From Thermoanaerobaculum aquaticum (GTDB taxonomy: Bacteria; Acidobacteriota; UBA4820), in NCBI GenBank assembly GCA_020722885.1, contig DYJZ01000001.1:1144-65143 (forward strand): 64,000 bases of DNA, read 5' to 3'. Shown in pieces: positions 27,800-50,162 of this stretch (its first letter is position 1; the number at the start of each line of letters is the position of its first letter). The notes below the pieces were generated by a model that was not told the origin of the DNA, ran no database searches, and saw only the letters and a program-made list of their open reading frames with translations. The translations under genes were made by a program, and so were the position numbers.

Positions 27800-28752
27800 T
27801 AAACTTTGTAAATCTCCTTTATTAACTCCATAGTGTAAATTGCCTCATCAAGAATGGGAACTTCGCAGGTTTCAAAATTTATTAGTTTTACCATTTCTTC
27901 AGCCTGTTTCCTGAAACCTGGTTTAAAATTTTTATCCCAGATATTTACCTTCATCTCTACGGATTTTTCAAATCTCTTCTGGATTCTTCCTTCTTATAGT
28001 GGTCTTAGTTCAAACCTTATATCAGGTAAATGGACAGTAATAGCCCAGGGCCCTGGTTCATTCCAGAAGGCATGATAAATTCCTAAATCACCAGAATTAA
28101 ACTCAATATGGCTTTCAATAAAACAGGGTTTATTGAAATCAAGACTTCCAGATGTTTTAATTATTTTAAAATTTCCCCTTGCAAAGATTCCGAAATAGTC
28201 GAGGATGTGAATTGAATTTGCATACATCCACCTTTCAACCACCTCTTTCGGCTTTCCCATTGACAGAGCCCTTTCAGGATCTTCCTGATCTTGAGCAAAT
28301 ATCATTCTTTTTCCATCAATTTTCTCTAACTCCTTTTTAACAAACCCGGTCACTGAATAGCTACTTCTATTTAAGGCTACTCTAATCTTTTTATTCTTTT
28401 TGTTTGCAATATCCCTGATTTCTTTAGCATTCTCAACAGAAAGTGCTGGCGGTTTTTCACATAGGATTTCCCAGTCATAATCAAGGCATTTTATTATTGT
28501 TTGTGGCATACTCATTTCGTTAACGGCGATTACTACTATGTTTGCTCTTGTTTTGTCCCATAATTCCTAAAGGGTATCACAAACATTCAATATGTTATAT
28601 TTAGTCGCAAGACTTTCAGCCTTTTCTCTCGTTCTGCTGAATATCCCTGTAATTTCAACTTCTTCAATATCTCTAAATGCTTTCAAATGTTCATTTGCCG
28701 TATAACCTGCCCCGATAAGTGCCACTTTGATCTTCTCATTACAGTTTTCCAT
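27797..28752 (-). pseudogene. Gfo/Idh/MocA-family NAD(P)-dependent oxidoreductase interrupted by two in-frame nonsense codons (TAG at 28567-28569, TAA at about 27994-27996)
   Basis: The three segments (61 aa; 17 codons + 173 aa; 63 codons) are all in one frame. Read straight through they give a typical 315-aa Gfo/Idh/MocA protein (KVALIGAGYTANEHL...NVCDTL*ELWDKTRANIVVIAVNEMSMPQTIIKCLDYDWEILCEKP...ELRPL*EGRIQKRFEKSVEMKVNIWDK...PILDEAIYTMELIKEIYKV). The final TAA overlaps the ATG of the downstream gene (TAATG). Coordinates near 27800-28000 may be off by 1. Confidence 0.6.
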
Positions 28753-29506
28753 TAATTCTCCTCACGAAAAAAATCTACCACCATTTTTGCAACAATTTCA
28801 GCGTAAAGAAGATGTCCAGTAAAAGTTATATGATGACCATCGTTTGCGTTTATCAATTCATTCAAGTCGGATGACTTTACCTTTATTGCTCTGTTTATAT
28901 CCACCAGTTTGATTCGATTGCTACCTGATAAGGAAACAACTTCTTCGATCAGCTTGTTGTACTGTTCGATCGACCTGGAAAACCCAGGCGAATGGTCTTC
29001 AATCTTTTGATTGGTGGGCGCAATATTGATGATTAGGACCATATCGCTTGATACAGAAGCTTCTTTAATCCAGGTCATCAGGATTTTCTTAAACTTTGAA
29101 GGAGATGTAAGCCTTGTCCCGAAGCCTGCTTTTAAAATGAGCGCCCTGTTGTTATGAAGACATTTCACGACGGGTTTTCTCACGATCTCCGGTAAGTATC
29201 CCAAAATCCGCCTCATAAACGACGGTAGCGGCCTCGGAGCGCAGTCCACAACCCCACACTGGATGACGACAATCCCACTTCTCCGAGGTAATCCCTGTCT
29301 TCCCTGAACTGCCTGCTAAGCCTTTCAACCGTGGCACCTCCGAAAAACCTGTTATAGACCTGTACGCTCTTTCCGAGAATTGACTCTATTTCTCTTGCTA
29401 CCAAAAAACAGTATTCCTCTCCGTACCCGATTCCTTCAAACGGTCTTGGAAGGCTCAGGGAATCCCCGTAAATTTTCAGGGCGATTGGTCTTTCAAAATT
29501 TCTCAT
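28752..29506 (-). pseudogene. SGNH/GDSL-family hydrolase split by a frameshift (candidate glycan O-acetyl esterase/acyltransferase)
   Basis: Upstream ORF (29213-29506) carries block I ...IYGDSLS. Downstream ORF (28752-29249) carries block V ...NDGHH. The two overlap in different frames at 29213-29249, inside a GC-rich patch (about 50% against a locus average near one-third). Confidence 0.5.
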
Positions 29507-30917
29507 CTTCTTTTCTGTCCTTCAACCAAAAAAATCCTCCGATAATAGCAGCAGTTAACAACATTAAAATCTTCCATGCAAGTCCCACCTTAGGAGAATA
29601 GGCCAAAAAGAATGCCCCAGCCATCATCGCCGCTGACAGGATCAAAGGTGCCAATCTGTAACAAAGGGGATAACGAAAATGGCCCAAAATGAACGAAAGG
29701 AACGCCATTACGAAGAACCCGGCAGCAGTAGCCCACGCCGCAGTCATAACTCCCCAGCGCGGAATGCCATAAAAATTGATTGTAATGTTTGTTACAGCCG
29801 ATACTCCAGTAATGAGAGGGAAAAAATATGTCTTCTTTAGACGGTAAAAAGTCATTCCTGGAACTGAATACAATCCCTGAAAAAGGTAACCCAGAACCAC
29901 CGGTGAAACATATTTTGCACTTTCCTCGTATCTACCAGAAGAAAGAATAACAATCGCCTCTTTCGAAAAAAGAATCAATCCACCAGCACAAAGAGAAAGA
30001 AAAAAAATGGAGTAAGAAGCAGCCTTTCCAAGAACAGATTTTGCATCATCGCTTTTACCAGTCTCACTCATAAAGACAGGTGACCATATACTGGTAAATG
30101 CTCCCACAACCCCCTGCATAACCATACCCACTGCATACCCAAATGAATAAAATCCCAGATCTTTTAAGTATTCCTTCCCATAGTAAGATATCACCATTCT
30201 GTCACTTAAATTTAAGACCCACATAAATAGCGTGTGAGGAAGTAAAGGAATTGCAAATTTGCTGACATTTTTAAATAACTTTAAATCAATTGAAAAAGTT
30301 GTATCTTTAATCAAAAAATAGTAATAAACTATCAGGAACAATAAGGCACCAAGAAAAACTGCAACTATTTGACCTTTTGCCCCCTTTTTAAAATAAACAA
30401 CGAAAAGAATGATTAAACAAACCTGTGTTAAACCAAAAGCACTCTGGATAATTGTATTTAATGCAATCTTTTCTTTTGCAATGAAAAGAGCCGTAGGAAC
30501 CGTGGAGAAAGAAATAAGAAAGGCTGACAAACCGATTAAAAAACCATATGGGTAGAAAGGAAGTCCAATACTTCCAAAAATTTTTTCTATTACTATTTTT
30601 CCGACTGCAGAATAAATTAAAAACCATACTAAAGAATAAAAAAAGCATAAAACCGCTATTCCTCCAATATTTTTTCTTTGCTCTTTTATATCTTTATATT
30701 TCTGGTTATAAAAGAAAACGACTGCTCCACCAACGCCCATCGGCATTAACATCGTTAGAACATTTCGAAGTGAATTCGCGAAACCCACCACGGCGTATTC
30801 TTCCGGGTTCATGGCTCTGGCGTACATTGGAGCAAGAAAAAATGCAATCAGGTATGTTCCACCATGGCCGAGAATAGAATAGAAAAAACCTTTTCCAAGC
30901 CTTTTGTATATTTGCAT
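29493..30917 (-). CDS. wzx: Wzx-type polysaccharide flippase (MOP superfamily, Polysacc_synt family)
   Basis: 474 aa with about 12-14 TM helices. Typical length and hydropathy of O-unit flippases, in a glycan-cluster context. Confidence 0.75.
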   Translation of the reverse strand: MQIYKRLGKGFFYSILGHGGTYLIAFFLAPMYARAMNPEEYAVVGFANSLRNVLTMLMPMGVGGAVVFFYNQKYKDIKEQRKNIGGIAVLCFFYSLVWFLIYSAVGKIVIEKIFGSIGLPFYPYGFLIGLSAFLISFSTVPTALFIAKEKIALNTIIQSAFGLTQVCLIILFVVYFKKGAKGQIVAVFLGALLFLIVYYYFLIKDTTFSIDLKLFKNVSKFAIPLLPHTLFMWVLNLSDRMVISYYGKEYLKDLGFYSFGYAVGMVMQGVVGAFTSIWSPVFMSETGKSDDAKSVLGKAASYSIFFLSLCAGGLILFSKEAIVILSSGRYEESAKYVSPVVLGYLFQGLYSVPGMTFYRLKKTYFFPLITGVSAVTNITINFYGIPRWGVMTAAWATAAGFFVMAFLSFILGHFRYPLCYRLAPLILSAAMMAGAFFLAYSPKVGLAWKILMLLTAAIIGGFFWLKDRKEDEKF

Positions 30918-30925: not shown

Positions 30926-31933
30926 TCAGGAAAATACTTTTTCATAAAAATCGTTATTCAGTTCAGTTACTATTCCACCATTCTCAGAAGAAAAATAACC
31001 TGCAACCAAAGTCTTAACTGCATATAAAGCATCTTCTGCAGAACTTCTTACATTTTCTTCCCAGTTTATAAGACCCATTACCATACTTTTTGTTAGTTCT
31101 ACAACACTTTCAGAAGGAATAGCCATTTCCTCTTCAATCGACTCAAGACCGTATCTTGTTGGAGGGTAAATCCCGTTTTCCTTTCTTCTATAACTCATTC
31201 TTAGAAGCCCTCTTATTAAATCTACTTCAATAATCCCATATCTGCAGGTTATTATCATCTTAATTTCATAGCCGCTGTCATTACCAATAACTACTACTAT
31301 CTTTTTGTTATTTGCTGTTCTTCCTATTAAAACGCCAACCGGGTCATTAAATCTATCACCCCTCGGATTTTGATGGTTTGAATCTTCAAATATGGCATTA
31401 ACATAACATATATTTTCATCCGTTATAAATCGTGCAATTTCTACTAAATGGCTTCCTATCATAGCGAATCCAACATTGGCACATACAAAAGCCATATTTT
31501 CTAAACCACCAAACCTCTCTTCGTTCACAATCTTTTTAAGAGTGATGTACCTTTGTGAAAATCTCTGCGGATGATTCACTGCCATTTTTATATTTTTTTC
31601 TCTGCAAATTTTCAGTATAGTCTCGCAGTCTTTAACAGATGATGCCATTGGCTTTTCGCATAAAATATATTTTGCATATTTTGACGCCATTTCCACAATG
31701 TCTTTGCGAGAATCACTGTTTGTAGCAATGATCACTGCTTCTGGTTTAACCCTTTCCATAAGTAAATACGAATCTGTAAAAAACAATTCTTTCGCAAAAT
31801 CAAATTTCTTTTTTGCTTCTTTTATTTTACTTTCCTCTTTATCACACAGACCACAAATTTCAAGATTCGGCTCTTTAATTGCCTGAATATACCTTAAGTC
31901 CATCGGTCCCAGACCAATTACCGAGCATTTCAT
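30926..31933 (-). CDS. Gfo/Idh/MocA-family oxidoreductase
   Basis: N-terminal Rossmann motif (KCSVIGLGPMDLRY...) and EKP motif (...ILCEKPMA...). Confidence 0.7.
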   Translation of the reverse strand: MKCSVIGLGPMDLRYIQAIKEPNLEICGLCDKEESKIKEAKKKFDFAKELFFTDSYLLMERVKPEAVIIATNSDSRKDIVEMASKYAKYILCEKPMASSVKDCETILKICREKNIKMAVNHPQRFSQRYITLKKIVNEERFGGLENMAFVCANVGFAMIGSHLVEIARFITDENICYVNAIFEDSNHQNPRGDRFNDPVGVLIGRTANNKKIVVVIGNDSGYEIKMIITCRYGIIEVDLIRGLLRMSYRRKENGIYPPTRYGLESIEEEMAIPSESVVELTKSMVMGLINWEENVRSSAEDALYAVKTLVAGYFSSENGGIVTELNNDFYEKVFS

Positions 31934-31936: not shown

Positions 31937-33181
31937 TTATACCTTCTGTAAAGAAGTAATTTTCTCTATAACAAAATCTTGTTCTTTTTGGGCAAGTTTT
32001 ACAGAACAGGGAAGACATAAGCACCTTTTTTTCAATTTTTCTGCAACATCGCAAACCGTTTTTGGACTATTTTTATGCGGTTTTAAAAGATGCATAGGCT
32101 GCCATAAGGGTCTTGTCTCAATTTTATGTTTTTGAAGTTCTTTCATTAGGTTAACCCTGTTTAAACCATATTCTTTTTCTTCAATTTTTATGGTATACAA
32201 CCAGAAAGTTGTTTCGCAGTAATATGGCTTTGTCATTACACCAATACCAGGAATCTCTGACAGTTTTTCATTATACATTTTTGCTATTTCCCTTTTCTTC
32301 TCAATATAGGCATCTATCTTCTCCATCTGTGCACATCCCATTGCCGAAAGAAGGTTTGGAAGACGATAGTTGTAGCCTATTTCATTATGAATAAACTCGA
32401 CACTATCATCTTTAGCCTGTGTTGTAAGGTATTTTGCTTTTTTTGCAAGAACCGGATCATCGGTTACAATCATTCCTCCACCACCTGTAGTTATAATTTT
32501 GTTACCATTAAAACTAAAAACGCCCAATTTCCCAAATGTTCCGGCAAATTTCCCTTTAACACTTGCTCCGAGTGCCTCTGTAGCATCCTCTATAACAGGA
32601 AGTCCATAATTTCTGGAAATCTCCATAATGCTTTCTATATCACAACAATGGCCCAGAATATGAACAGGTAGAATAGCTTTTATGTATCTTTTTGTATCCT
32701 TATTCATCAATCCTTTAGCTGTTTTTTTAGTTCTTGTCTTTAAAAAGTAATTGAGTTTATCTACATCCAACTGGAAAGTATTGTAATCAGCATCTATAAA
32801 TACTGGATGGGCTCCAACATACCTGATTGCATTTGCGGGAGCAACAAAAGTTAAATCGGATGTTATTACCTCATCGTCTCGATGAATTCCAAGCAACAAA
32901 AGCGAAATATGCAACGCAGCCGTTCCATTGACACAGGCAACAGCGTACCTAACTTTTACAAAGTCTGCAACCATTTTTTCAAATTTATCAACAAATGGTC
33001 CTGCGGAAGAAACCCAATTCGTATCAAGGCATTCTTTTATATACTTCCACTCATTTCCAGAAAGATGTGGAACACATAAGGGAATGAATCCTTTTTCGGC
33101 AATGCCAGGTTCGACCTTTCTTTTCATATTTTCCTCATATATTGTAAATGTTTGTTTTGTAGTGGTGAAGATTCTGCTCAA
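31937..33181 (-). CDS. DegT/DnrJ/EryC1-family sugar aminotransferase (LegC-like)
   Basis: PLP-lysine region ...FSFNGNKIITTGGGG.... The start is probably the internal Met at about 33127, which removes the 47-nt overlap with the upstream gene. Confidence 0.8.
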   Translation of the reverse strand: MSRIFTTTKQTFTIYEENMKRKVEPGIAEKGFIPLCVPHLSGNEWKYIKECLDTNWVSSAGPFVDKFEKMVADFVKVRYAVACVNGTAALHISLLLLGIHRDDEVITSDLTFVAPANAIRYVGAHPVFIDADYNTFQLDVDKLNYFLKTRTKKTAKGLMNKDTKRYIKAILPVHILGHCCDIESIMEISRNYGLPVIEDATEALGASVKGKFAGTFGKLGVFSFNGNKIITTGGGGMIVTDDPVLAKKAKYLTTQAKDDSVEFIHNEIGYNYRLPNLLSAMGCAQMEKIDAYIEKKREIAKMYNEKLSEIPGIGVMTKPYYCETTFWLYTIKIEEKEYGLNRVNLMKELQKHKIETRPLWQPMHLLKPHKNSPKTVCDVAEKLKKRCLCLPCSVKLAQKEQDFVIEKITSLQKV

Positions 33182-34130
33182 GCCACTTAGCGGTCTTTAA
33201 TATTCCATTTTTCAGGTCAATTTTACTTTCCCATTTTAAGACATTTTTAGCCTTTTCAGGATTGGATAACAGAATCATTACTTCACTTTTTTTAGGTCTC
33301 AATCTCTCTTTTTTCGTAACTATCTCTTTTTTACAATTCAGTACTTCCATTGCTACATCTGCTATTTGTTTAATAGAGTAAGTTTTACCTAATCCAAGTT
33401 GTATGACTTCCCCTTCAATCTTCCTCGTAATCCCGGCTCTTATAAAACCTTCAACTGTATCCGAAACATAAGTCAAATCCCTCTTTGGATTCAAATTTCC
33501 CAATTCAATTTTACTTTTACTCGATAAAATCTGTCCTAAAATCGTTGGAATAACCGCTCTCATAGATTGCCTTGGTCCGTAGGTATTAAACGGCCGTAAA
33601 ACAATAACCGGTAAACCATAAGAGCAATAAAAAGCCTCACACAATTTATCTGCAGCAATTTTAGAAGCAGAATATGGGGATTGTCCTTGCAGAGGATGTT
33701 TCTCGGTTATTGGAATATTTTGTGGGGTCCCATAAACCTCACTCGTCGAAGTGTGAACAACACGCCTTACACCCTGTTTTAACGCTCCTTCAAGCAGGTT
33801 ATAAGTTCCAAGGATGTTAGTTTCAATAAACGAAGCTGGCGCAACATAGGAATAGGGAATTGCAATCAATGCGGCAAGATGAAATACTATATCAATTCCT
33901 TTCAAAGACTTTTCAACAAATTCCTTGTCCCTGATATCACCAAGAACTACTTCAAAAGAATCTTTTTTTTCCGATTTATCGAGCCATCCCCACGACCCAA
34001 AGGAATTGTAGAAACAAAAGGCTTTCACCTGTGCACCTTCATCCACAAGCCTTTCAACAAGATGGCTGCCTATAAATCCATCTGCGCCGGTTACCAGAAC
34101 TTTAATTCCTGTATATTTTTTTTCTCTCAT
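33135..34130 (-). CDS. NAD-dependent nucleotide-sugar 4,6-dehydratase/epimerase (extended SDR; LegB-like)
   Basis: VLVTGADGFIGSHLVERL Rossmann motif. Catalytic Y-x3-K (YSASKIAADKL). Confidence 0.75.
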   Translation of the reverse strand: MREKKYTGIKVLVTGADGFIGSHLVERLVDEGAQVKAFCFYNSFGSWGWLDKSEKKDSFEVVLGDIRDKEFVEKSLKGIDIVFHLAALIAIPYSYVAPASFIETNILGTYNLLEGALKQGVRRVVHTSTSEVYGTPQNIPITEKHPLQGQSPYSASKIAADKLCEAFYCSYGLPVIVLRPFNTYGPRQSMRAVIPTILGQILSSKSKIELGNLNPKRDLTYVSDTVEGFIRAGITRKIEGEVIQLGLGKTYSIKQIADVAMEVLNCKKEIVTKKERLRPKKSEVMILLSNPEKAKNVLKWESKIDLKNGILKTAKWLEQNLHHYKTNIYNI

Positions 34131-35182
34131 TCTTTTTCCCTGTAATGACCGCGTGCTTTACTTAGTTCGCTATGCCTCCCAATATCTATCCATTCTTCTT
34201 CTATTTGGTAAACTGACACATTTAACTTTTTCTCAGTTGCTTTATTAATCAAATCTGGCATTGTAAAAAAAGTTTTTTGGGGAACCAATTTTATCAATTC
34301 TGGAGAAACAACATATATGCCAGATGCGACAGGACAGGAACTAACCGGTTTTTCCACCACAGCGTATAACTTTTTTCGTTTGAGTTTTAGAACTCCATAT
34401 GGTATCTGATAAACATAGTTATAAGCCCCAACCGTTAAATGACTTTTCATTCTGTTGTGGTAATCAATCATATCCGAAATATTAACCTGAGTTACTAAAT
34501 CTCCATTTAAAACTACTATTGGTTGTTTAGTTTTAACTTTGATAAGTGAGAGGGAACCTGCTGTTCCCAATGGTTCACTTTCCACAACATATTCAAGATT
34601 ACATCCAAATCTTGCACCATCTCCAAAATAATCCATTATCTTCTCTTTCAAATAGTTCACCGACACATAGATTTTTCTTATTCCAAAACCAACAAGATGG
34701 TGAATAATCCTTTCTAAAATGGGCCTGCCTGCAACAGTCAACATAGGTTTGGGAATTTTTTCTGTTAGCGGTTTTAGCCTCTCTCCTCTGCCCCCCGCCA
34801 TAATGACTGCTATATTGTTTTTTTTCTCTACTCCTAAAATACCATAAAGAGTATGTATTCCCTTTATTCTTCGTTTATCATCCAGAATTGGAATAACATT
34901 TATTTTTCTTGCTTTCATAATGTCAAGAACATTCATCCTCGATTCGTTTTTATTTACCCATATAAAATTTCTGTTTGCATATTCGAGCACCGATGTATCA
35001 AGCATTTTGCCTTTTAACAGGGCTTTTCTTATATCACCATCAGCCAGACTGCCCAGCATTTCACCTTCTCTACCCGTAACAAAACAGATTTCTTGCCCTG
35101 ACTTTTCAAGGGATACAAGGGCATCTTTTATGTTAGATTTATAGTCAATAATCATATTTTTATAGAGGTTATCTTTATTCAT
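34127..35182 (-). CDS. CBS-pair + nucleotidyltransferase fusion (PtmE-like hexosamine-1-phosphate guanylyltransferase)
   Basis: N-terminal tandem CBS domains followed by a sugar-phosphate nucleotidyltransferase signature (AVIMAGGRGERLKPLTEKIPKPML). This architecture matches Campylobacter PtmE of the GDP-linked legionaminic acid pathway. Confidence 0.7.
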   Translation of the reverse strand: MNKDNLYKNMIIDYKSNIKDALVSLEKSGQEICFVTGREGEMLGSLADGDIRKALLKGKMLDTSVLEYANRNFIWVNKNESRMNVLDIMKARKINVIPILDDKRRIKGIHTLYGILGVEKKNNIAVIMAGGRGERLKPLTEKIPKPMLTVAGRPILERIIHHLVGFGIRKIYVSVNYLKEKIMDYFGDGARFGCNLEYVVESEPLGTAGSLSLIKVKTKQPIVVLNGDLVTQVNISDMIDYHNRMKSHLTVGAYNYVYQIPYGVLKLKRKKLYAVVEKPVSSCPVASGIYVVSPELIKLVPQKTFFTMPDLINKATEKKLNVSVYQIEEEWIDIGRHSELSKARGHYREKE

Positions 35183-35837
35183 TACTTTCCCTTTTCTTTA
35201 TTATTTTTGCGGGAACTCCAGCCACAACGCAGTTGTCTTCTATATCATTTATGACTACAGAGCCAGCTCCAACTATCACATTTTTACCAATCTTTATTCC
35301 CTGTATGATGGATGCTCCTGTTCCTATATGACTGAGTCCGCCAATTTTAACATTGCCAGAAACTGTTACCCCAGGAGCAATATGAACACTCTCCCCCACC
35401 TGACAATCGTGTTCAACGATAGCCCCGCTGTTTATTATGGTATTAATTCCAATTTTAGCACCAGCATTAACAATCGCCCCAACAAGTATCTGGCAACCAT
35501 CGTCTAAAGTTACCTGAGACGAAATCAAGGCAGTAGGGTCAACAACCGTAAATGGTTTTAGCCCCATTTCAATTCCTGAAATAAAAATTTTATGCCTCAA
35601 GGTACAGTCTCCAGTTGTACCTATTCCATTAATAAAATATTTTACACCCTTTTTGATAAGGTCTGGAACTATTCCATCTCCTCCTTTAACCTTAATCCCC
35701 CAAAAAAACCTATTCCACAGCTCGCTGTTTTTTTCAATGAAACAGTCTATCTCATACTCTTCATTTTTCTGTCTGTTAAACGATTCAAGAACAACCTTGC
35801 TATGTCCACCACAGCCAAAAATAGCAATTTTTTTCAA
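35175..35837 (-). CDS. NeuD/PglD/LegH-family sugar N-acetyltransferase (N-terminal Rossmann-like domain + left-handed beta-helix)
   Basis: MKKIAIFGCGGHSKVV N-domain followed by hexapeptide repeats. Confidence 0.7.
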   Translation of the reverse strand: MKKIAIFGCGGHSKVVLESFNRQKNEEYEIDCFIEKNSELWNRFFWGIKVKGGDGIVPDLIKKGVKYFINGIGTTGDCTLRHKIFISGIEMGLKPFTVVDPTALISSQVTLDDGCQILVGAIVNAGAKIGINTIINSGAIVEHDCQVGESVHIAPGVTVSGNVKIGGLSHIGTGASIIQGIKIGKNVIVGAGSVVINDIEDNCVVAGVPAKIIKKRESNE

Positions 35838-37036
35838 ATAATTTTATCTCCTTTTAAATCATAAAAGGCTTTTTGGGTTTTTATCCCTTTCTCCAGTCTT
35901 GACTCGATGAACTTCACAATAATTTTTGCTGCATTACCATCACCATATATGTTTTTGCAATTTTTTAACTTCTCTTTGAACTCAGAGGATGTCGCGAAAT
36001 TAACTGAATCCACTATTTGCTGTTCTCCAAAGTCACAATCAATAACATTTGTATTTCTAACTCTTCCCTCCTGTCTTTTCCCTATATTTATAGCAGGAAG
36101 TTTGAATGAGGCTGATTCTATTATTCCGCTCGATGAGTTCCCGATTACTGCCTCAGCAAGAGACATCAAACTAAAATAATTCTGCGTTCCAAGATTTTCA
36201 AAAAATATTAAATTTTTATTACTTTTAACTTCGCTCAGTATAACTTCCCTGATTTCACTGTTTCCTGGATCAGCGTTGGGCAGGGTTACAATTAATTGGA
36301 CATCAAATTCCCTTAGTGCTTTAAACATAGTTTGTGCGTTTTTTCTGTTATCTACTTTTCCTACAGTTTCCGGATGAAGCGTAACCAGAAAAAACCTCTT
36401 TTTTAAATTTATATTTAACTTTTTTTCAATCTCACTTTTAGAAAGAATTTTTATTTCTTTCAGGTTATCTAAAGAAGGTGCACCTGATATTATTACATTT
36501 TCAGGGTTCTCTCCAAGCTGTATTACTCTATTTCTGTACTCTCCTGTTGAAACAAAATGAAGATGCGAAAGTTTTGTAATCGAATGCCTTAAAGAATCAT
36601 CAATTGCTCCATAAGTCAATTCTCCACCGTGAATATGTGCAACCGGAATATTAAAAGGAAGAGCAGCAAGAGCAGCTGCGTGCATTTCAAACCTGTCACC
36701 TAAAACAAAAAGAAGGTCAATTTTCCTTCTTGAAAAAACTTCCGCAAAAAAATTTAACGCCAGTGCCATTGATTTGACCGTAGATGAGGGACTATCCGCT
36801 GCTAAAAGGATTTCACCTTTTTCCATAATTTTAAATTTTTCTTTCTCTATTTCTCTGATAGTTAAACCATATAGAGCGGATAAATGACTTCCTGTTACAA
36901 TAAAGAAGAACTTTATTTTATTGCTTTTTTTTAGTTCTCTTGCAACAGGAAGATATATTCCAAAATCAGCTCTTGATGTGGTCACAAGTCCTATAGTCTT
37001 CAATCGATCATCTGCCATTTTATTATTGTACCACAT
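35834..37036 (-). CDS. Hydrolysing NDP-HexNAc 2-epimerase (NeuC/LegG-like)
   Basis: About 400 aa of the epimerase_2 family (...IGLVTTSRADFGIYLPV..., ...HIHGGE...), adjacent to the NeuB-like synthase. Confidence 0.75.
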   Translation of the reverse strand: MWYNNKMADDRLKTIGLVTTSRADFGIYLPVARELKKSNKIKFFFIVTGSHLSALYGLTIREIEKEKFKIMEKGEILLAADSPSSTVKSMALALNFFAEVFSRRKIDLLFVLGDRFEMHAAALAALPFNIPVAHIHGGELTYGAIDDSLRHSITKLSHLHFVSTGEYRNRVIQLGENPENVIISGAPSLDNLKEIKILSKSEIEKKLNINLKKRFFLVTLHPETVGKVDNRKNAQTMFKALREFDVQLIVTLPNADPGNSEIREVILSEVKSNKNLIFFENLGTQNYFSLMSLAEAVIGNSSSGIIESASFKLPAINIGKRQEGRVRNTNVIDCDFGEQQIVDSVNFATSSEFKEKLKNCKNIYGDGNAAKIIVKFIESRLEKGIKTQKAFYDLKGDKII

Positions 37037-38046
37037 TTGATATTTATAAGTGCTTTTCTGCCTACAACTTTATCAATATCCGAAGGAGGAATTCCTCCTC
37101 TTGGCCTTTTAGCGGTAACCATCTCTTTAGTTATTTTGTCTCCTTTTTTAATATCTACTTTTGCAACAATTGACTTTCTTGCCTTTTGGAGTATTTCTTT
37201 TTCACACTGTTGTATATTTTTAGAATTTTTTCCGAGCGCTTCTTCCACATCTCTTATCTCTGTAACCATTTTTCTAAATTCTTCGGGCTCGAGAGAACAA
37301 AAATGGTCAGGCCCCGCCATAGACCTGTCGAGTGTGAAATGTTTTTCTATTATTTTTGCCCCGAGCGCCACTGCTGCAACAGGAATATGAATCCCAATTG
37401 AATGGTCTGATAACCCTATTGGAAAATTAAACCTAAACTGCAATTCAGGAATTACCTTCAAATTTATCTGGTTGTAAGGACAGGGATAAGAACTGACACA
37501 GTGAAGTAAAGCAATATTTTTTTCACCCAATTTTTTTACTCTTTTAATCGTGGTGTCAATTTCTTCCATTGTAGACATTCCACAAGATAATATAACAGGC
37601 TTTTTGAACGATACTATTTTTTCGAGAAGCAAAAAGTTGTCAAAGTCTCCCGAGCCAATTTTAAAGGCTGGAACTCCAATTTCATTAAGAAATGAAGCAC
37701 TTTCCTCATCAAAGGGTGTTGACAGAAAAGTAATTTTCCTCTTATCACACCTTTCTTTAATTTTAACAAAATCTTCAAACTTTATTTCGAGAGATTTTAG
37801 CATATTGTACTGGTCTTTGAATTCCCTGCTTCTTTTTTGATAATCGGCTTGAGGAGTACCTTTTAAGACGAGAGAATTTACCTTAAATGTTTGAAATTTA
37901 ACTGCGTCAGCCTTGCTTTCACAGGCTGCATCAACGAGGGCATAAGCCGTTTTCAGACTTCCATTGTGGTTAACACCCGCCTCTGCAATAATATAAGTGC
38001 TGTAATTTGATCCAATTTTTCTATTATCTATCTCTATAACTACCAA
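37000..38046 (-). CDS. Nonulosonic acid synthase (NeuB/LegI/PseI family, with C-terminal SAF domain)
   Basis: N-terminal ...YIIAEAGVNHNGSL...ADAVKFQTF... TIM-barrel signature. C-terminal antifreeze-like domain. Confidence 0.85.
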   Translation of the reverse strand: MVVIEIDNRKIGSNYSTYIIAEAGVNHNGSLKTAYALVDAACESKADAVKFQTFKVNSLVLKGTPQADYQKRSREFKDQYNMLKSLEIKFEDFVKIKERCDKRKITFLSTPFDEESASFLNEIGVPAFKIGSGDFDNFLLLEKIVSFKKPVILSCGMSTMEEIDTTIKRVKKLGEKNIALLHCVSSYPCPYNQINLKVIPELQFRFNFPIGLSDHSIGIHIPVAAVALGAKIIEKHFTLDRSMAGPDHFCSLEPEEFRKMVTEIRDVEEALGKNSKNIQQCEKEILQKARKSIVAKVDIKKGDKITKEMVTAKRPRGGIPPSDIDKVVGRKALINIKCGTIIKWQMID

Positions 38047-38834
38047 ATTGTAAATCCTCCATCAAGGACAATATTCTGTCCGGTCAAATAATCAGACATA
38101 TCACTTACAAGATACATTATAGTTCCTTTAATGTCTTCCTCCCGTGCCATCCTTTTCTGGGGTGTTTTTTTTATGTATCTCTCTACGAATTTAGAATCCT
38201 GATTTCTAAAAACACCTCCGAATGAAATGCAATTAACTCTTATATCAGGCGCCAATTTGGTTGCCAGATACCTCGTTAACTGAATTAAACCAGCTTTGCT
38301 CGCACCGTATGCAGCAGGATTTGCCATACCTGTTCCTTCATAAAGAGAAAAATCAGGTCCAACAATCCCATAAATTGATGAAATAAAAACTATAACTCCT
38401 TTCTTTTCTTTTTGATTATGTTTTGCAAAATCCTGACTCAATATAAATGCTGAAGTCAGATTAACCCTTAAACCTGCCTCAAATGCGTTTTCAGTTTGTT
38501 CTTCAAAGGGAACAGCCCATCCTGAATACTCTGTAGTCCCAACAAAGGCTGCTGAATGAACAAGAATATCAATTTTTTTAAATTTTTCTATCACCTTTGG
38601 AACAATTGTTCTGGTCTCTGCATTCTCCAAAAGGTTTGCCTCTATCGCTATCGACTTGACATTGTACCTTGTTTCAATAAGTTTCTTTAGTGGGTGGATT
38701 TTATTTTCGGAGATATCGTGAATAGCAATATTGCAGCCCTCCTCAGCAAGACTTTCACAAATCGCTCTTCCTATCTTTCCACCACCTCCAACAACAAGAG
38801 CCACCTTTTGATCCAATATTCTTTTTCTTTTCAT
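38040..38834 (-). CDS. Short-chain dehydrogenase/reductase (PtmA-like)
   Basis: VVGGGGKIGRAI Rossmann motif. Catalytic YGASKAG. Confidence 0.75.
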   Translation of the reverse strand: MKRKRILDQKVALVVGGGGKIGRAICESLAEEGCNIAIHDISENKIHPLKKLIETRYNVKSIAIEANLLENAETRTIVPKVIEKFKKIDILVHSAAFVGTTEYSGWAVPFEEQTENAFEAGLRVNLTSAFILSQDFAKHNQKEKKGVIVFISSIYGIVGPDFSLYEGTGMANPAAYGASKAGLIQLTRYLATKLAPDIRVNCISFGGVFRNQDSKFVERYIKKTPQKRMAREEDIKGTIMYLVSDMSDYLTGQNIVLDGGFTIW

Positions 38835-39568
38835 TTTTCAATCCACGGGAAATTTATTATTTTTGCTTCAAGTAAAACCCTCGCCTTCTCAAAATCTTCA
38901 ATATGGTCAATATGGATTGCTCTTATTTCCGGTATTTTAACAACACTATGTTTTCCCTGCTCAATCCAGTTAGATGCTTTTTCCGATAAGAGAAAATCTC
39001 TTCGCCATAAATAAATTGTTGCATTTATTCGATAAACCTGAGGCACTTCCTGCCTTCTTTTATACCTGCTCGCGCCCTCAATTAACGGCTTCATAATACC
39101 ACCTTTTAATATAACGCAATGCCACAGCGGATTAAATTCTGGTTCTGACACACCAATTACGCCATCAAGACTTTCATCATTCTTTAAAATATCTATGGCT
39201 TTTTCTATATCTTCTGGATATCTCCCAGGACTTGTTGGATCAAGCAGGAGAAGTGAATGATATTTATCTCTATAAATTTTTTCACACTCCACAAGTGCGT
39301 GTTGCAAAACAGGGATCATTGCTGCCTTATCGGTAGATAATTCCGCTGGTCTTTTAAAAGGTACATCTGCACCATATTTTCTTGCAACATCAGCAATTCC
39401 CTCATCATCAGTTGAAACAGCAATCCTGTCAATTTTTCCACACATTTTAGCACACATAATCGAATGGGCAATAAGAGGATGGGATAACAAAGGTCTTACA
39501 TTTTTACCTGGAAGCCCTTTCGAACCACCTTTTGCAGGGATCACACACAGCAAAGGATTAACTTCCAT
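38831..39568 (-). CDS. CMP-nonulosonic acid synthetase (acylneuraminate cytidylyltransferase, NeuA/LegF-like)
   Basis: N-terminal ...IPAKGGSKGLPGKN... cytidylyltransferase motif. Confidence 0.8.
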   Translation of the reverse strand: MEVNPLLCVIPAKGGSKGLPGKNVRPLLSHPLIAHSIMCAKMCGKIDRIAVSTDDEGIADVARKYGADVPFKRPAELSTDKAAMIPVLQHALVECEKIYRDKYHSLLLLDPTSPGRYPEDIEKAIDILKNDESLDGVIGVSEPEFNPLWHCVILKGGIMKPLIEGASRYKRRQEVPQVYRINATIYLWRRDFLLSEKASNWIEQGKHSVVKIPEIRAIHIDHIEDFEKARVLLEAKIINFPWIEK

Positions 39569-40541
39569 AATTTATTTTTACCTCTCTTTTTATTTTTTCA
39601 CTTTTTTTCCAGCTTTCAATTATTGAAAGGACATTAAGTGCTTCAAAATAATTACATAGACATCGAGGTTCTTTTCCCTTTATAATCGCTATGAAATCTT
39701 TGAGTTCTTCTTTATAAAGGGTATTTTCATCCCTTTTTACCAAGATAATTTTTTCTTTTTTCTTAGAAGAAATTGTAATTCTCTTTTTAGAAAAATCGTA
39801 ACTCAATGTTGTCGAAACAGAAGATAAAGTGCATTTTCGGATGTGGCTTAAACTTAAATAATCTAAAACGATTATTGAAGAACAATTTCTTTCGTATTTC
39901 AGAATTGCAGATGCATATTCTTCTTCAGCAATACCGAGTATGTTGTAGTTCTTTGCAATCCCGTAAATTCCATATGGTTTTTCAAAGAAAAAATTCAGAT
40001 AATCAATCTCGTGACTTAAATCAAGAATAACACCTCCTTCATCTTTTCTGGCTGAATAATTCTGAAGACAGTTTCTATTCTTACGCCAATGTGGTAAATA
40101 AGACCTGCATTCTGCACTTAAAAAATAAATTTCGCCAATATCCCCTGCAAGTTTAAAAAGTTTTTCAAATCCTCTGTCATATCTTAAATTGTATCCTACA
40201 TAAAGGTTGTTTTTTACATAATTTTTTATTTTCTCGGTTTGTTTTAAATTTGACGCAAGAGGTTTTTCACACAGAACAATCAGGTTTAGATCAAGGGCAA
40301 TGGAACAGTCTTCAATATGCCTCGATGTATCGGTACATATTATAACACCAATTGCCCCCATACTTTTTGCCTCTTCAAGATTTTTAGCCGTAGTGAATCC
40401 TTTTTTTTGCAACTCAACAATTCGCTCTTTTCTTACCGGAACTGCAATGGTTTTAATAGTAAGTGAACTTAAAATTTTAAGATGCCTTAGACCAATTGAA
40501 CCCGTCCCCAGTACTGCAATAACAATGTTTTCTTTATTCAT
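39558..40541 (-). CDS. Gfo/Idh/MocA-family oxidoreductase (PtmF-like position in the nonulosonate block)
   Basis: N-terminal ...IVIAVLGTGSIGLRHL... and ...VLCEKPLA... motifs. Confidence 0.65.
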   Translation of the reverse strand: MNKENIVIAVLGTGSIGLRHLKILSSLTIKTIAVPVRKERIVELQKKGFTTAKNLEEAKSMGAIGVIICTDTSRHIEDCSIALDLNLIVLCEKPLASNLKQTEKIKNYVKNNLYVGYNLRYDRGFEKLFKLAGDIGEIYFLSAECRSYLPHWRKNRNCLQNYSARKDEGGVILDLSHEIDYLNFFFEKPYGIYGIAKNYNILGIAEEEYASAILKYERNCSSIIVLDYLSLSHIRKCTLSSVSTTLSYDFSKKRITISSKKKEKIILVKRDENTLYKEELKDFIAIIKGKEPRCLCNYFEALNVLSIIESWKKSEKIKREVKINYGS

Positions 40542-41479
40542 TTTATTATCAGTGGATGCTCCTGACCTTTCTGAGGAGTTGAAAGAGGACTTTTTCTTAT
40601 CTTATAAACAACCTCTATCGATTTTCTGGAATCTTCTATTCCAAGTCCTTTTTTTTCCAACACTTCTTCATAAACCCTTGTATGAAGATTATTAAACCCT
40701 TCTGAAAATTCAATTTCTTTATTGTCCACTTTTATTGAACGAAAGGTGTTTCTGCCTTCTTTTTTTACATCTTCAGGAATAAAGCGGGGATTCAATGATA
40801 AAAACCATTTTACATCAGCCTTTTCAAGAGACATATAACCAGAAACTGTTTGTTCCTCCCTGTGAAAAATAAGTGTTTCCTTAACATTCCCAAACAGCCA
40901 TATCAAGAGGTCAAAAAAATGTATTCCGATATTTGTCGCCACACCACCAGAATACTCTTCATTCCCTTTCCAGGATACATAGTACCACCTTCCCCTCCCG
41001 GTAATGTATGTCAGTTCAACATTGAAATGCTGGCCCCTTTTTTCTATCTCCTGTTTGATATTTTTTAAAACTGGATGCAATCTTAGTTGCATAACTGTAT
41101 AAACTCTTCTTCCTGTTTCTTCTTCAAGTTCCTTAAGTGCATCGAGATTCCAGGGATTTATTACAAGAGGTTTTTCACAAATTGCATCACAATCATTTCT
41201 CAATGCGAGTCTAATATGGGCATCGTGAAGATAATTGGGAGTACATATAGAAACATAATGAACCTTTTCGTCGTTAGATTTTCTATGCTGTTTAAACAAG
41301 AATCTGTCAAACCTCTCGGTCTCGCGAAAATACATTATGTCAAGCGAATATCTGTCAAGAATTCCTACAGAATCCTTTGGATCAACTGCCGCAACGATTC
41401 TGTTGCCGGTTTGCTTTATAGCCTCAAGGTGCCTCGGAGCAATGTATCCACCTACCCCCATTACAGCAAAGTTATACAT
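40538..41479 (-). CDS. Gfo/Idh/MocA-family oxidoreductase, WbpB-like (UDP-HexNAc-uronate 3-dehydrogenase type)
   Basis: About 313 aa. ...FAVMGVGGYIAPRHL... and ...AICEKPLV.... Sits adjacent to the UDP-sugar 6-dehydrogenase, as in wbpA-wbpB. Confidence 0.6.
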   Translation of the reverse strand: MYNFAVMGVGGYIAPRHLEAIKQTGNRIVAAVDPKDSVGILDRYSLDIMYFRETERFDRFLFKQHRKSNDEKVHYVSICTPNYLHDAHIRLALRNDCDAICEKPLVINPWNLDALKELEEETGRRVYTVMQLRLHPVLKNIKQEIEKRGQHFNVELTYITGRGRWYYVSWKGNEEYSGGVATNIGIHFFDLLIWLFGNVKETLIFHREEQTVSGYMSLEKADVKWFLSLNPRFIPEDVKKEGRNTFRSIKVDNKEIEFSEGFNNLHTRVYEEVLEKKGLGIEDSRKSIEVVYKIRKSPLSTPQKGQEHPLIIK

Positions 41480-41493
41480 TATTTACCATCCTT

Positions 41494-42828
41494 TCACGAT
41501 TGAACAATGTTTGCCTTAACTTTAAGATTTTTATAAACTCCTCTCGTATCAATTATAAGCGGAACCACATTCCCGACCATCTTATAATCCACATTGGAAT
41601 GGTCGGTAATAACTATAGCAGCAGAATATTTTTTCAAATTTTTCTGTGTCAACTTTATAGATTTCATTCCTGCAAGATTTTTATGTTTTCTCGTTTCTGG
41701 ACAGATAGGCACATAAGAGTCATAAAAATCGATTTCTGCTCCTCTATCAATAAGTTTTTCAATTATTTCAAAAGCAGGGGTTTCTCTTGCATCGTCTATA
41801 TCTTTTTTGTAGGCAATTCCCAGTATGAGAATTTTTGTCCCTTTTATTGGTTTCTTCATCTGATTTAATCCAAGAGTAAGTTTTTCAATGACATATTCAG
41901 GCATTCTCCAGTTTATCTCTCCGGCAAGTTCTATGAATTTAGTGGAAAAACCGTACTCTTTTACTTTCCAAGAAAGATAAAATGGGTCAAGGGGAATACA
42001 ATGTCCTCCCCAGCCAGGTCCAGGATTGAAACGCATAAAGCCGAATGGTTTTGTGCTCGCTGCATCCAAAACTTCCCATATATCTATCCCCATTTTATCG
42101 TAAGCCATTTTTAATTCATTTACAAGAGCTATGTTTACCGCCCTGAATATGTTTTCTGTTAATTTTGTGGCTTCGGCAGTTTTTGAATCCTTAACCGAAA
42201 CGACTTTCTGGACAAAAGTGGAATAAAATAGAGTTGCAAGTTCACCCGATACTTTGCTTACTCCACCAACCACTTTTGGCGTCGTTGTTGTTGTGAAATC
42301 CTTCCTTCCTGGGTCCTCTCTTTCAGGAGAAAAGGCAAGAAAAAAGTCTTTTCCTTCTTTTAGACCTGTCTTTTCAAGAATATCTTTCATAAGTTCATCT
42401 GTTGTTCCAGGATAGGTTGTAGATTCAAGAATAATCAATTGTCCTTTTTTTAAGTTATTTTTTATAGCCTCAGTTGTAGCCAAAATGAAACTCATATCAG
42501 GTTCTCTTTGCACTGTTAGCGGTGTTGGAACACAAATCACGACTATATCCATTTCAGAGAGTCTGCTGAAATCGCCTGTTACATCAAAATGCCCCGATTT
42601 TACCATTTTTTCAAAAAGATTTTTGTCTAAATGTTTAATATACACTTTCCCATTTTTTAAGAGTTTCACTTTTTCCTTGTCAGTATCAAATCCACTTATT
42701 TTAAACCCTTTTGCGTTAATTGCAATAGCAAGGGGAAGTCCCACATACCCCATTCCGATTATTCCGACCATTGCATTGAAACTTTTAATTTTTCTTTTAA
42801 GTTCAATAAAAGTTTTACTCATTCGCAA
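41494..42828 (-). CDS. UDP-N-acetyl-hexosamine 6-dehydrogenase (UDP-glucose/GDP-mannose dehydrogenase family; WbpA/WecC-like)
   Basis: N-terminal ...VGIIGMGYVGLPLAI... Rossmann motif. Central catalytic Cys region (...GGHCIPLDPFYL...). Confidence 0.8.
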   Translation of the reverse strand: MRMSKTFIELKRKIKSFNAMVGIIGMGYVGLPLAIAINAKGFKISGFDTDKEKVKLLKNGKVYIKHLDKNLFEKMVKSGHFDVTGDFSRLSEMDIVVICVPTPLTVQREPDMSFILATTEAIKNNLKKGQLIILESTTYPGTTDELMKDILEKTGLKEGKDFFLAFSPEREDPGRKDFTTTTTPKVVGGVSKVSGELATLFYSTFVQKVVSVKDSKTAEATKLTENIFRAVNIALVNELKMAYDKMGIDIWEVLDAASTKPFGFMRFNPGPGWGGHCIPLDPFYLSWKVKEYGFSTKFIELAGEINWRMPEYVIEKLTLGLNQMKKPIKGTKILILGIAYKKDIDDARETPAFEIIEKLIDRGAEIDFYDSYVPICPETRKHKNLAGMKSIKLTQKNLKKYSAAIVITDHSNVDYKMVGNVVPLIIDTRGVYKNLKVKANIVQS

Positions 42829-43759
42829 TCCTTTCTTTCATTTTCTCAAAAGTAATTTTTAGCCCTTCCTTTATAGCAACCTGTGGTTCATAGTTCAAAT
42901 TAATTTTTGCTTTTTCGTAGCTTCCGCAGGATCTTAAAATATCATTTCTTCTGCCACTAATGTGCTCGATTTTAAGCCCGTTTATTATATGAGACATTTC
43001 AATTGCAAGCTCATTTATAGATGTTTCTTTTGCCGAACAGATATTATAAACTCCATAAGATTCGTTACTTTTCTCAACAGCAAGAAGGTTTGCCCTTGCA
43101 ACGTCATCGACAAAAACAAAATCTCTTGTCTGTTGACCACTTCCCTCTACGCAAATCTCTTTTTTTCTTAACCCTTCATTCATAAATCTGGAAATAACTG
43201 CGGAATACATTCCGTTGGGATTCTGACCTGGTCCATATACATTGAAATACCGCAGTATTTTAACAGATACATTTGTTCTTAAACTGAATTCTCTCAAAAT
43301 TTCTTCTGCAACTATCTTTGAATGAGCATAGGGAGATAAAGGATTAATTGAAGAATTTTCATCAAGTGGAATTTCTTTGTTATCTCCATATAAAGCACAA
43401 GAGGAAGCAAAAATAATTTTTTTGACGCCACTTTTTTCGGCAATTTTTGCAACTTTTATAGTTCCTCCAACATTTACATCATAACACTCTGAGCAATTTA
43501 ATTCAGATTCTGGAACGGAGATGAAAGCAGCTTGATGAAATACGACCTGAGCGTTTTCAAAGGCTCCAAAAAGAGAGCTTTCTTCTCTTATATCTCCTAT
43601 TATAAGATCAATATAAGGTTCAAAATCCTTTATATTATGAAGACTTCCAGTAGAAAGATTATCCACAACAGAAACTGCCCATCCCTGCTTTAAAAGCAGA
43701 TCAACTATATGACTACCTATAAAACCACAACCACCTGTTACGACTGCTTTATGTGCCAT
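42815..43759 (-). CDS. NAD-dependent nucleotide-sugar 4-epimerase (GalE/WbpP-like extended SDR)
   Basis: ...VTGGCGFIGSHIVDLL.... Catalytic YAHSKIVAE (Y-x3-K). Confidence 0.75.
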   Translation of the reverse strand: MAHKAVVTGGCGFIGSHIVDLLLKQGWAVSVVDNLSTGSLHNIKDFEPYIDLIIGDIREESSLFGAFENAQVVFHQAAFISVPESELNCSECYDVNVGGTIKVAKIAEKSGVKKIIFASSCALYGDNKEIPLDENSSINPLSPYAHSKIVAEEILREFSLRTNVSVKILRYFNVYGPGQNPNGMYSAVISRFMNEGLRKKEICVEGSGQQTRDFVFVDDVARANLLAVEKSNESYGVYNICSAKETSINELAIEMSHIINGLKIEHISGRRNDILRSCGSYEKAKINLNYEPQVAIKEGLKITFEKMKERIANE

Positions 43760-44858: not shown

Positions 44859-44862
44859 TTTT

Positions 44863-48094: not shown

Positions 48095-48095
48095 C

Positions 48096-50155: not shown

Positions 50156-50162
50156 CTCTTTA

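Follow-up and report, generated by a model that had tools for sequence, protein, structure and literature searches.

We examined a 64-kb window (the whole stretch analyzed, 64,000 nucleotides of contig DYJZ01000001.1 in assembly GCA_020722885.1) and found that nine contiguous genes at 31937-40541 probably form a complete operon segment for a cytidine monophosphate (CMP)-activated 5,7-diacetamido-3,5,7,9-tetradeoxy-nonulosonic acid. This sugar belongs to the legionaminic acid (Leg) family of nonulosonic acids (NulOs), and its pathway is of the version that uses LegB, LegC, and a fusion of a CBS pair with a nucleotidyltransferase. The block is located in a large surface-polysaccharide locus of the Wzx/Wzy type in an uncultured Acidobacteriota-like bacterium. 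It was noted that the genes of the window form a single long minus-strand run with approximately 35% G+C, and that the nine open reading frames (ORFs), all on the minus strand, lie back to back or overlap by a few bases.

The families were assigned by NCBIfam and Pfam profile searches, with bit scores set against the curated cut-offs. The initial annotation, made from the sequence before any database search, had listed the same nine families in the same order, and these searches bore out that list. With E-values down to 1e-148 and synteny kept in relatives, chance matches can be excluded.

The nine enzymes of the block

The genes are given below in the order in which they are transcribed.

39558-40541, minus strand: Gfo/Idh/MocA oxidoreductase (Gfo) of the PtmF/ElaA type, first gene (Pfam PF01408/PF22725/PF02894)
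38831-39568, minus strand: CMP-nonulosonate synthetase, LegF/ElaB/NeuA-like (Pfam CTP_transf_3, 77 bits; PseF, 134.6 bits, below the cut-off of 205.7)
38040-38834, minus strand: short-chain dehydrogenase/reductase (SDR) of the PtmA/ElaC type (NCBIfam PRK09186, 213.6 bits, and FlagModPtmA, 153.6 bits, both below cut-off)
37000-38046, minus strand: nonulosonate synthase NeuB/LegI (TIGR03569, 424.9 bits, above 399.65; PseI, 313.1 bits, below 340.25)
35834-37036, minus strand: hydrolyzing NDP-sugar 2-epimerase NeuC/LegG (TIGR03568, 452.1 bits, above 235.9; WecB model, 92.8 bits)
35175-35837, minus strand: NeuD/PglD-type N-acetyltransferase, LegH-like (NeuD/PglB/VioB model TIGR03570, 204.6 bits, above 160.8)
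34127-35182, minus strand: CBS-pair and sugar-1-phosphate nucleotidyltransferase fusion, PtmE/LgaF-like (Pfam CBS and NTP_transferase)
33135-34130, minus strand: LegB-type NAD-dependent 4,6-dehydratase (TIGR04180, 436.7 bits, E 3e-131, full-length match)
31937-33127, minus strand: LegC-family aminotransferase (TIGR04181, 493.6 bits, above 420; PseC, 278.1 bits, below 423.5)

Translation of the LegC gene probably begins at the ATG at 33127 and not at the TTG at 33181 chosen by the ORF finder; the ATG follows a GAGGA Shine-Dalgarno sequence, and a protein started there has 396 residues, as in relatives.

Conservation of the block in relatives

Identical or near-identical copies of parts of the locus were found on metagenome contigs. 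The protein encoded at 26453-27799, a glycosyltransferase-like gene downstream of the block, has an exact match (100% identity) on JGI metagenome contig 3300000227 TB_AS07_7DRAFT_10000128 and also occurs on NCBI and Logan contigs, and a Logan contig from another run matched 4.9 kb of the block at 98.8% DNA identity. The nearest other relatives are metagenome contigs of similar G+C, some of which are labeled Acidobacteriota, including the metagenome-assembled genome (MAG) GCA_041890195.1. In this MAG and in other metagenome contigs the block is syntenic at 54-78% protein identity.

The shared order begins with NTP_transf_5, an epimerase, an NDP-sugar dehydrogenase, two Gfo genes, the cytidylyltransferase, the SDR, NeuB, NeuC, and an acyltransferase. 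It continues with the CBS-nucleotidyltransferase, LegB, LegC, a Gfo gene, Wzx, a small gene, another Gfo gene, the GT-B-like gene, (an acetyltransferase), Wzy, and a GT4 glycosyltransferase. The first Gfo of the block (39558-40541) is 46-60% identical to its counterparts in the relative contigs L002, L003, L004, and L014. In two of the relatives, L002 (9329-10000) and L003 (4803-5474), a formyltransferase occupies the slot of the NeuD/LegH acetyltransferase, which predicts a 7-N-formyl variant of the sugar in these lineages. The formyltransferase fits an N-acylating step with a variable acyl group, and the window enzyme at 35175-35837 would act on the 4-amino group that becomes N7.

A Leg-type pathway with a probable GDP-linked route

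The initial annotation had proposed a complete Leg-type pathway, and the set of LegB, LegC, and CBS-nucleotidyltransferase supports this; the block encodes neither a pseudaminic acid (Pse) nor an N-acetylneuraminic acid (Neu5Ac) pathway. The Leg and Neu models outscored the Pse models, with 436.7 bits for LegB against 74.7 for PseB, 493.6 for LegC against 278.1 for PseC, and 424.9 for NeuB against 313.1 for PseI. The other runners-up for the dehydratase were dTDP-glucose dehydratase (174.8 bits) and FnlA (52 bits). Among the NCBIfam matches in the block, PseB, PseC, and PseI all fell below their cut-offs as well as below the Leg or Neu models, and neither PseG nor PseH was found.

For comparison, the reference clusters of E. 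coli O161, O108, O145, and NT1F31 were recovered by DNA search. The fusion at 34127-35182 is a full-length positional homolog of the fusions in the Leg-type clusters among them (38% identity to O161, 37% to O108, 36% to NT1F31), and it is therefore not an unrelated mannose-1-phosphate guanylyltransferase paralog. Its NCBIfam matches were generic (MurU, archaeal GlmU, mannose-1-phosphate guanylyltransferase, and HddC, 86-145 bits), PDB searches likewise returned only generic matches for it, and more than 6600 homologs share its CBS and NTP_transferase architecture. No structure of a LegB or PtmE protein turned up in PDB searches, where the LegB homolog matched Pal of B. thuringiensis best, at 166 bits. 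NeuB is 46% identical to the O161 NeuB, NeuC is 39-42% identical to Leg-type E. coli NeuC proteins and 38% to that of O145, and the cytidylyltransferase (PDB 6ifd, 121 bits) is 36% identical to that of O161 and 33% to those of NT1F31 and O108; for these three enzymes, identities to Leg-type and Neu5Ac-type E. coli enzymes lie only a few percent apart and were not used as evidence. The models do not separate LegG, LegI, and LegF from NeuC, NeuB, and NeuA, so that these Leg labels rest on context.

We infer that the block follows a route linked to guanosine diphosphate (GDP), because the LegB-type dehydratases of T. forsythia and C. jejuni accept GDP-N-acetylglucosamine (GDP-GlcNAc) only and a PtmE homolog has been read as a marker of the GDP route (PMC5378307). 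The initial annotation took the fusion as the signature of this route. The fusion is present and is homologous to those of Leg clusters, but it is not a strict signature alone, since E. coli clusters pair it with a dehydratase of a different family; the LegB/LegC pair is the stronger argument for the GDP type.

By this route, the CBS-nucleotidyltransferase would activate glucosamine 1-phosphate to GDP-glucosamine, by analogy with PtmE, and a housekeeping GlmU-type enzyme encoded outside the window would acetylate it. The LegB homolog would then produce the 4-keto-6-deoxy sugar, LegC would introduce an equatorial amine at C4, and the NeuD/LegH enzyme would acetylate that amine. NeuC/LegG would strip the nucleotide and epimerize C2, NeuB/LegI would condense the product with phosphoenolpyruvate, and the cytidylyltransferase would convert it to the CMP-sugar.

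Several points weigh against this reading. The TIGR04180 score of the LegB homolog is 38 bits under the curated cut-off of 475, so that the NCBI pipeline would not assign the LegB name, and the LegB, cytidylyltransferase, SDR, and Gfo proteins all score below NCBIfam curated cut-offs. In the E. coli and Acinetobacter clusters, the same CBS-nucleotidyltransferase occurs together with a dehydratase of the PglF/LgaA type, to which the window LegB shows insignificant similarity (E 0.013 against that of O161). The likeness to C. jejuni Cj1319-Cj1332 was drawn through profile models and E. coli intermediates only. PgmL and GlmU partners were not found within the 64-kb window; these are housekeeping-type genes and are expected elsewhere in the genome. 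Further points of this kind concern the two oxidoreductases and are given with them in the next section.

A route linked to uridine diphosphate (UDP), as in Legionella, was also considered and appears very improbable. Here the PglF/PglE/PglD-like enzymes encoded at 10109-15173 would make UDP-N,N'-diacetylbacillosamine (UDP-diNAcBac), which the NeuC-like enzyme would hydrolyze, and the fusion would be irrelevant to the NulO. The locus does contain a PglF-like dehydratase, a DegT aminotransferase, and acetyltransferases, and the L. pneumophila route from UDP-diNAcBac was reportedly established by Glaze and colleagues in 2008. However, dedicated LegB, LegC, LegH, and nucleotidyltransferase genes lie between NeuC and the flippase, where they are translationally coupled and kept as a unit in all relatives, and the PglF-like set adjoins a PglC-like initiating transferase, an arrangement typical of the first sugar of a repeat unit.

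The oxidoreductase triad and the final stereoisomer

The first three genes of the block (Gfo 39558-40541, cytidylyltransferase 38831-39568, SDR 38040-38834) form a triad in the same order as in E. coli O108 and in ElaABC of A. baumannii. The Gfo protein is 26% identical to the O108 Gfo over 316 residues (E 5e-24), a relationship that the three other Gfo paralogs of the window do not show, and the SDR is 30% identical to its O108 counterpart over its full length. The O108 and window SDRs share their top two NCBIfam models, with 343.3 and 213.6 bits respectively for PRK09186 and 210 and 153.6 bits for FlagModPtmA. The best PDB matches of the triad were 3cea and 3ezy for the Gfo, 6ifd for the cytidylyltransferase, and 6uh2 (153.9 bits) for the SDR; 3ezy, 6ifd, and 6uh2 are the search models with which the ElaA, ElaB, and ElaC structures had been determined. 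The ElaA, ElaB, and ElaC chains themselves were not returned by PDB searches with the triad proteins.

In A. baumannii KL49, ElaA, ElaB, and ElaC are proposed to convert Leg through CMP-Leg and CMP-8-keto-Leg to CMP-8-epi-Leg, and the modules of Acinetobacter follow a simple grammar in which lgaABCDEFG gives Leg and lgaABCDEF with elaABC gives 8-epi-Leg. Presumably the O-antigen of E. coli O161 carries a Leg derivative and that of O108 carries 8-epi-Leg. The cluster annotated as O161 and the NT1F31 cluster lack both the Gfo and the SDR gene, as does lgaABCDEFG. Because the window triad matches ElaABC and O108, and O161 lacks both oxidoreductases, the product may be 8-epi-Leg rather than Leg.

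The labels PtmF-like and PtmA-like given in the initial annotation are thus correct as families, but ElaA and ElaC belong to these families too, and in A. baumannii and E. coli they go with 8-epi-Leg. Its naming of legionaminic acid as the product stands for the sugar family and is only tentative for the stereoisomer, since genes of the ElaA and ElaC families are absent from true Leg clusters. We consider 8-epi-Leg (or another epimer) and Leg to be roughly evenly placed as the final isomer.

The proposal that the ElaA/ElaC-type Gfo and SDR turn CMP-Leg5Ac7Ac, by way of the CMP-8-keto form, into CMP-8-epi-Leg5Ac7Ac, or into another epimer if the Gfo encoded at 30926-31933 acts too, is given a little under an even chance. 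These two enzymes bracket the cytidylyltransferase and would most likely oxidize a side-chain hydroxyl of the CMP-sugar and then reduce it again, in the way proposed for ElaA and ElaC, so that the donor delivered may be the 8-epimer instead of Leg. Besides the gene order, the specific relationship to the O108 Gfo, and the absence of both oxidoreductases from Leg-making modules, it is favored by the observation that genes adjoining the module decide which epimer is made (PMC5595891). For Pse, 8-epimerization by a cytidylyltransferase with two reductases (EpaA/EpaB; a cytidylyltransferase-reductase and an SDR) has been shown experimentally (PMC12053666). On the other side, the triad reaches only 26-33% identity to its O108 counterparts, the activities of ElaA and ElaC were modeled rather than assayed in the source study, and C. 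jejuni and C. coli carry the triad (PtmF, LegF, and PtmA in C. jejuni) and yet make Leg according to published nuclear magnetic resonance work. In C. jejuni, PtmF and PtmA have been assigned to the supply of glucosamine 6-phosphate. These two enzymes are placed there in the first pathway segment, which makes GDP-GlcNAc, and the PtmF of C. coli, the WeiH of E. coli, and a P. shigelloides protein are mutually 46-52% identical (PMC4481668).

That assignment supports the view of the initial annotation that the end product is legionaminic acid itself, a tentative reading to which we give clearly less than an even chance. It is further favored by P. shigelloides ptmA mutants, which lose flagellar glycosylation (PMC4481668), and by the FlagModPtmA match of the SDR. 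This score is, however, far under the cut-off of 350 bits, neither the Gfo nor the SDR family is known as an isomerase or glutaminase fold, and E. coli O161 and Acinetobacter make Leg without the two genes.

A candidate nonulosonic acid transferase

26453-27799, minus strand: GT-B-fold protein, candidate CMP-nonulosonate transferase (fold, motif, co-occurrence, and sub-threshold homology)

The initial annotation had described this protein as GT-B-like and as a candidate NulO transferase. The AlphaFold model has a GT-B fold with a predicted local distance difference test score (pLDDT) of 81.6, and an HP motif (H315-P316) and QHG205-207 are fully or almost fully conserved across 60 diverse homologs. 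The family models BFO_1060 and TIGR04396 were matched only below threshold, with scores of 56.6 bits against a cut-off of 200 and 37.2 bits against 125, and with only the C-terminal 150 or so residues aligned. The BFO_1060 model also matched 58 of the 60 homologs. BFO_1060 is the counterpart in T. forsythia strain FDC 92A2 of Tanf_01245 and TFUB4_00887, which are required for the transfer of Pse or Leg.

The close family is small: a word search gave 11 members, and among 1.84 billion there were 26 cluster representatives at E<=1e-30. A homolog was always found downstream of the NulO block in the relatives examined. Sequence searches of the PDB gave no match, and none of the structural matches of the model was specific to sialyltransferases. 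Given the fold, the HP motif, and the position beside a CMP-NulO pathway, the protein is a reasonable candidate NulO transferase, and it would add the sugar to the Wzx/Wzy-dependent repeat unit. The fuller proposal, that the donor is an epimer (8-epi-Leg, or an undescribed isomer made with the Gfo at 30926-31933) and is installed by this small uncharacterized GT-B family, distantly related to the Pse/Leg transferases of T. forsythia, is on the unlikely side.

The amidotransferase trio and its substrate

Three adjacent genes at 20661-23225 encode a WbuX/HisH/HisF acetamidino-forming system, with all three subunits above the curated cut-offs.

22572-23225, minus strand: HisH (TIGR01855, 226.3 bits, above 105.4)
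21793-22587, minus strand: HisF/AglZ (AglZ/HisF2 model NF038364, 328.7 bits, above 310)
20661-21821, minus strand: WbuX (TIGR03573, 311.5 bits, above 203.2)

The trio is 41-46% identical to the WbuX, HisH, and HisF proteins of E. coli O145, and an orthologous trio lies at the same place in the relative L012, with a WbuX protein 67% identical to that of the window. It had been described as flanking the NulO block. The trio is real, but it lies 8.7 kb downstream, separated from the block by a further Gfo gene, Wzx, two disrupted genes, the GT-B-like gene, an acetyltransferase, Wzy, and a GT4 gene. Additional genes in the locus bear on its possible substrate.

40538-41479, minus strand: WbpB-type UDP-GlcNAcA 3-dehydrogenase, directly upstream of the block (PDB 3o9z, 322.6 bits, E 2e-95)
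41494-42828, minus strand: NDP-sugar 6-dehydrogenase (TIGR03026, 415.3 bits)
14526-15173, minus strand: WlbB/WbpD-like acetyltransferase (PDB 3mqg, 208.7 bits)
15170-16261, minus strand: WecB-type 2-epimerase

Most of a pathway for UDP-2,3-diacetamido-2,3-dideoxy-hexuronic acid is thus present, split to both sides of the NulO block, and the genes at 40538-42828 belong to this pathway and not to the block. It is possible, with somewhat less than an even chance in our estimate, that the trio amidinates this 2,3-diacetamido-2,3-dideoxy-hexuronic acid, made by WbpA/WbpB/WbpD/WbpI-like enzymes, in the manner of WbpG-HisH2-HisF2 of P. aeruginosa O5 and AglXYZ of Methanococcus. The WbpB and WlbB/WbpD homologs, the 6-dehydrogenase, the WecB-type epimerase, and the score of HisF above the cut-off of the AglZ/HisF2 model all point this way, and the order hisH-hisF-wbuX-GT4, then an epimerase, then a phosphoglycosyl transferase and a WbpM-like gene, is one that we take to recall the P. 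aeruginosa O5 cluster. In that cluster, the substrate of WbpG-HisH2-HisF2 is a 2,3-diacetamido-uronic acid. WbpG is an amidotransferase for B-band lipopolysaccharide (LPS) and interacts with HisF2, and HisF2 and HisH2 have been proposed to deliver ammonia to WbpG (PMC11445079). Against this proposal, no clear WbpE-type 3-aminotransferase was found in the window, and the sole spare DegT enzyme (12625-13806) is closest to the ArnB/PseC type.

The initial annotation had instead suggested an acetamidino derivative of legionaminic acid, with the trio turning the 5-N-acetyl group of the NulO into an acetamidino group to give Leg5Am7Ac or an epimer. We regard this as unlikely. The O-antigen of L. pneumophila is a homopolymer of an acetamidino NulO, and the LPS loci of that species carry hisF- and hisH-like genes together with an "LPS biosynthesis protein." The relative L004 encodes a stand-alone WbuX-family amidotransferase (4470-5588; TIGR03573, 347.9 bits) between the Gfo and the cytidylyltransferase of its NulO block, from which NulO amidination probably occurs in the lineage. 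The trio-bearing relative L012/L014 lacks this embedded copy, and the L004-like contig L013 shows no trio in the part seen. However, the window WbuX is only 29% identical to the embedded enzyme of L004, against 54-73% for neighboring proteins, so the two are paralogs and not orthologs. It is nearer to the WbuX of O145 (43% identity), whose trio adjoins fnlABC in a locus that also makes Neu5Ac and presumably amidinates N-acetylfucosamine (FucNAc), not the NulO. The trio also lies among glycosyltransferases at a distance from the block, and the WbpB and WlbB homologs offer another target. Amidination of FucNAc itself to FucNAm was rated unlikely for the window: a WecB/FnlC-like epimerase is present, but FnlA and FnlB were not found in the window.

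Comparison with known systems

With Cj1319-Cj1332 of C. jejuni (LegB, C, H, G, I, and F with PtmE, PtmF, and PtmA) and the CMP-Leg locus of T. forsythia FDC 92A2/UB4 (BFO_1063-1074), compared through profile models and not directly with the reference proteins, the block shares the same enzyme family at each step. The likeness includes a dehydratase of the LegB and not the PglF/PseB type, the LegC family, and the CBS-nucleotidyltransferase; C. jejuni also has the triad of Gfo, cytidylyltransferase, and SDR, and T. forsythia has in BFO_1060 a relative of the GT-B protein found downstream of the block. Unlike these two systems, the window is a Wzx/Wzy polysaccharide locus and not an island for O-glycosylation of flagellin or an S-layer, its gene order differs, it has no maf genes, and its LegB, cytidylyltransferase, and SDR proteins fall below the curated equivalog cut-offs.

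The Wzx/Wzy context is shared with E. coli O108 and A. baumannii KL49 (lgaABCDEF with elaABC; 8-epi-Leg), as are the contiguous triad in the same order, the CBS-nucleotidyltransferase, LegC, NeuC, NeuB, and the NeuD-type acetyltransferase. However, the dehydratase of these clusters is LgaA/PglF-like, whereas that of the window is of the LegB type, and the triad stands at the 3' end of their blocks and at the 5' end in the window, with identities of 26-43%. The Leg modules of E. coli O161 and A. baumannii (lgaABCDEFG) resemble the block in the fusion (38%), cytidylyltransferase (36%), NeuB (46%), NeuC (42%), and LegC (40%) and differ in having a dehydratase of another family and neither a Gfo nor an SDR.

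The B-band cluster of P. aeruginosa O5 (wbpA-wbpM with hisH2-hisF2-wbpG) and the O145 locus of E. coli (wbuXYZ with fnlABC and neuDBAC) likewise carry the amidotransferase trio in a Wzx/Wzy locus. The window shares with O5 its WbpB, WbpD/WlbB-like, WbpI-like, and WbpM-like genes, and O145 shows that a NulO pathway and a trio can coexist and serve different sugars. Unlike these clusters, the window contains neither fnlA and fnlB nor a recognizable WbpE, and it differs from O5 in having a full Leg-type block.

Neighboring genes and locus setting

Two further genes directly follow the block.

30926-31933, minus strand: additional Gfo/Idh/MocA oxidoreductase (Gfo3), directly after LegC (Pfam PF01408, N-terminal domain only)
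29493-30917, minus strand: Wzx flippase of the same repeat unit (Pfam Polysacc_synt; 62-63% identity in relatives)

Gfo3 directly follows LegC in every relative, at 37-45% identity, and it diverges faster than the rest of the block and is distant from the other Gfo paralogs. It may add a further modification to the NulO.

Between Wzx and the GT-B-like gene lie two disrupted minus-strand genes. The Gfo/Idh/MocA gene at 27799-28752 is full length and 65% identical to an intact 314-residue ortholog in L004, and it contains two in-frame stops (TAG and TAA) and no frameshift. Both stops fall at glutamate positions of the ortholog, so that each corresponds to a G-to-T change at the first codon position. 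The JGI contig shows identically fragmented gene calls, and the gene is either a recent pseudogene or the site of read errors. An alternative genetic code or recoding was rejected, because all other genes read normally with table 11 and the neighboring gene is frameshifted. That neighbor, a gene for an SGNH/GDSL-type hydrolase (28752-29506), is split by a single frameshift near 29273-29282 and is intact in L004 and L012 (245-268 residues); its G+C is 0.41, compared with 0.33-0.36 in its surroundings.

Downstream of the amidotransferase trio, the minus-strand segment 17499-19449 encodes a WbqC-like protein, a methyltransferase, and a PIG-L-type de-N-acetylase between glycosyltransferases. In L012, the relative with the trio, these genes are missing from the matching position and the GT4 genes that flank them in the window adjoin.

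A second glycan cluster was found on the minus strand at 43749-61245, with its own Wzx (53327-54799) and a Wzy-like gene (45714-47075). It was noted that this cluster encodes five paralogs of the alkaline phosphatase/sulfatase superfamily (50163-51731, 51728-53326, 54803-56080, 57101-58393, and 59863-61245), a radical SAM protein (56077-57108), a PHP-domain protein (58396-59238), and an adenosine phosphosulfate (APS) kinase (59235-59882), which suggests a sulfated or phosphorylated polysaccharide. The low-coordinate end of the window (83-4694, minus strand) encodes a Wzc tyrosine kinase, a Wza exporter, and a beta-barrel porin-like protein, with an OPT oligopeptide transporter and a methyltransferase between this end and the glycan genes. 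At the high-coordinate end (62300-63700, minus strand) there is a STAND/NACHT-type NTPase.

Significance

The block is a well-formed but ordinary Leg-family NulO module in a Wzx/Wzy polysaccharide locus, and it adds little alone because Leg-type pathways are widespread and well described. It offers a clear case in which the LegB/LegC version of the pathway is linked to the Gfo-cytidylyltransferase-SDR triad, here in an uncultured lineage, Acidobacteriota-like and from a bioreactor metagenome. The role of this triad is disputed between precursor supply, as in Campylobacter, and C8 epimerization, as in Acinetobacter and E. coli. Natural variants among the relatives could guide work on the glycan chemistry, including an acetyltransferase or a formyltransferase in the same slot, an embedded WbuX-like gene or a downstream trio, and intact or decayed SGNH and Gfo genes. 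The family of the protein at 26453-27799 comprises candidate NulO transferases and has almost no characterized members. If the donor is indeed an epimer installed by this family, both ElaABC-type epimerization after activation and a new family of NulO transferases would be extended to environmental Acidobacteriota.

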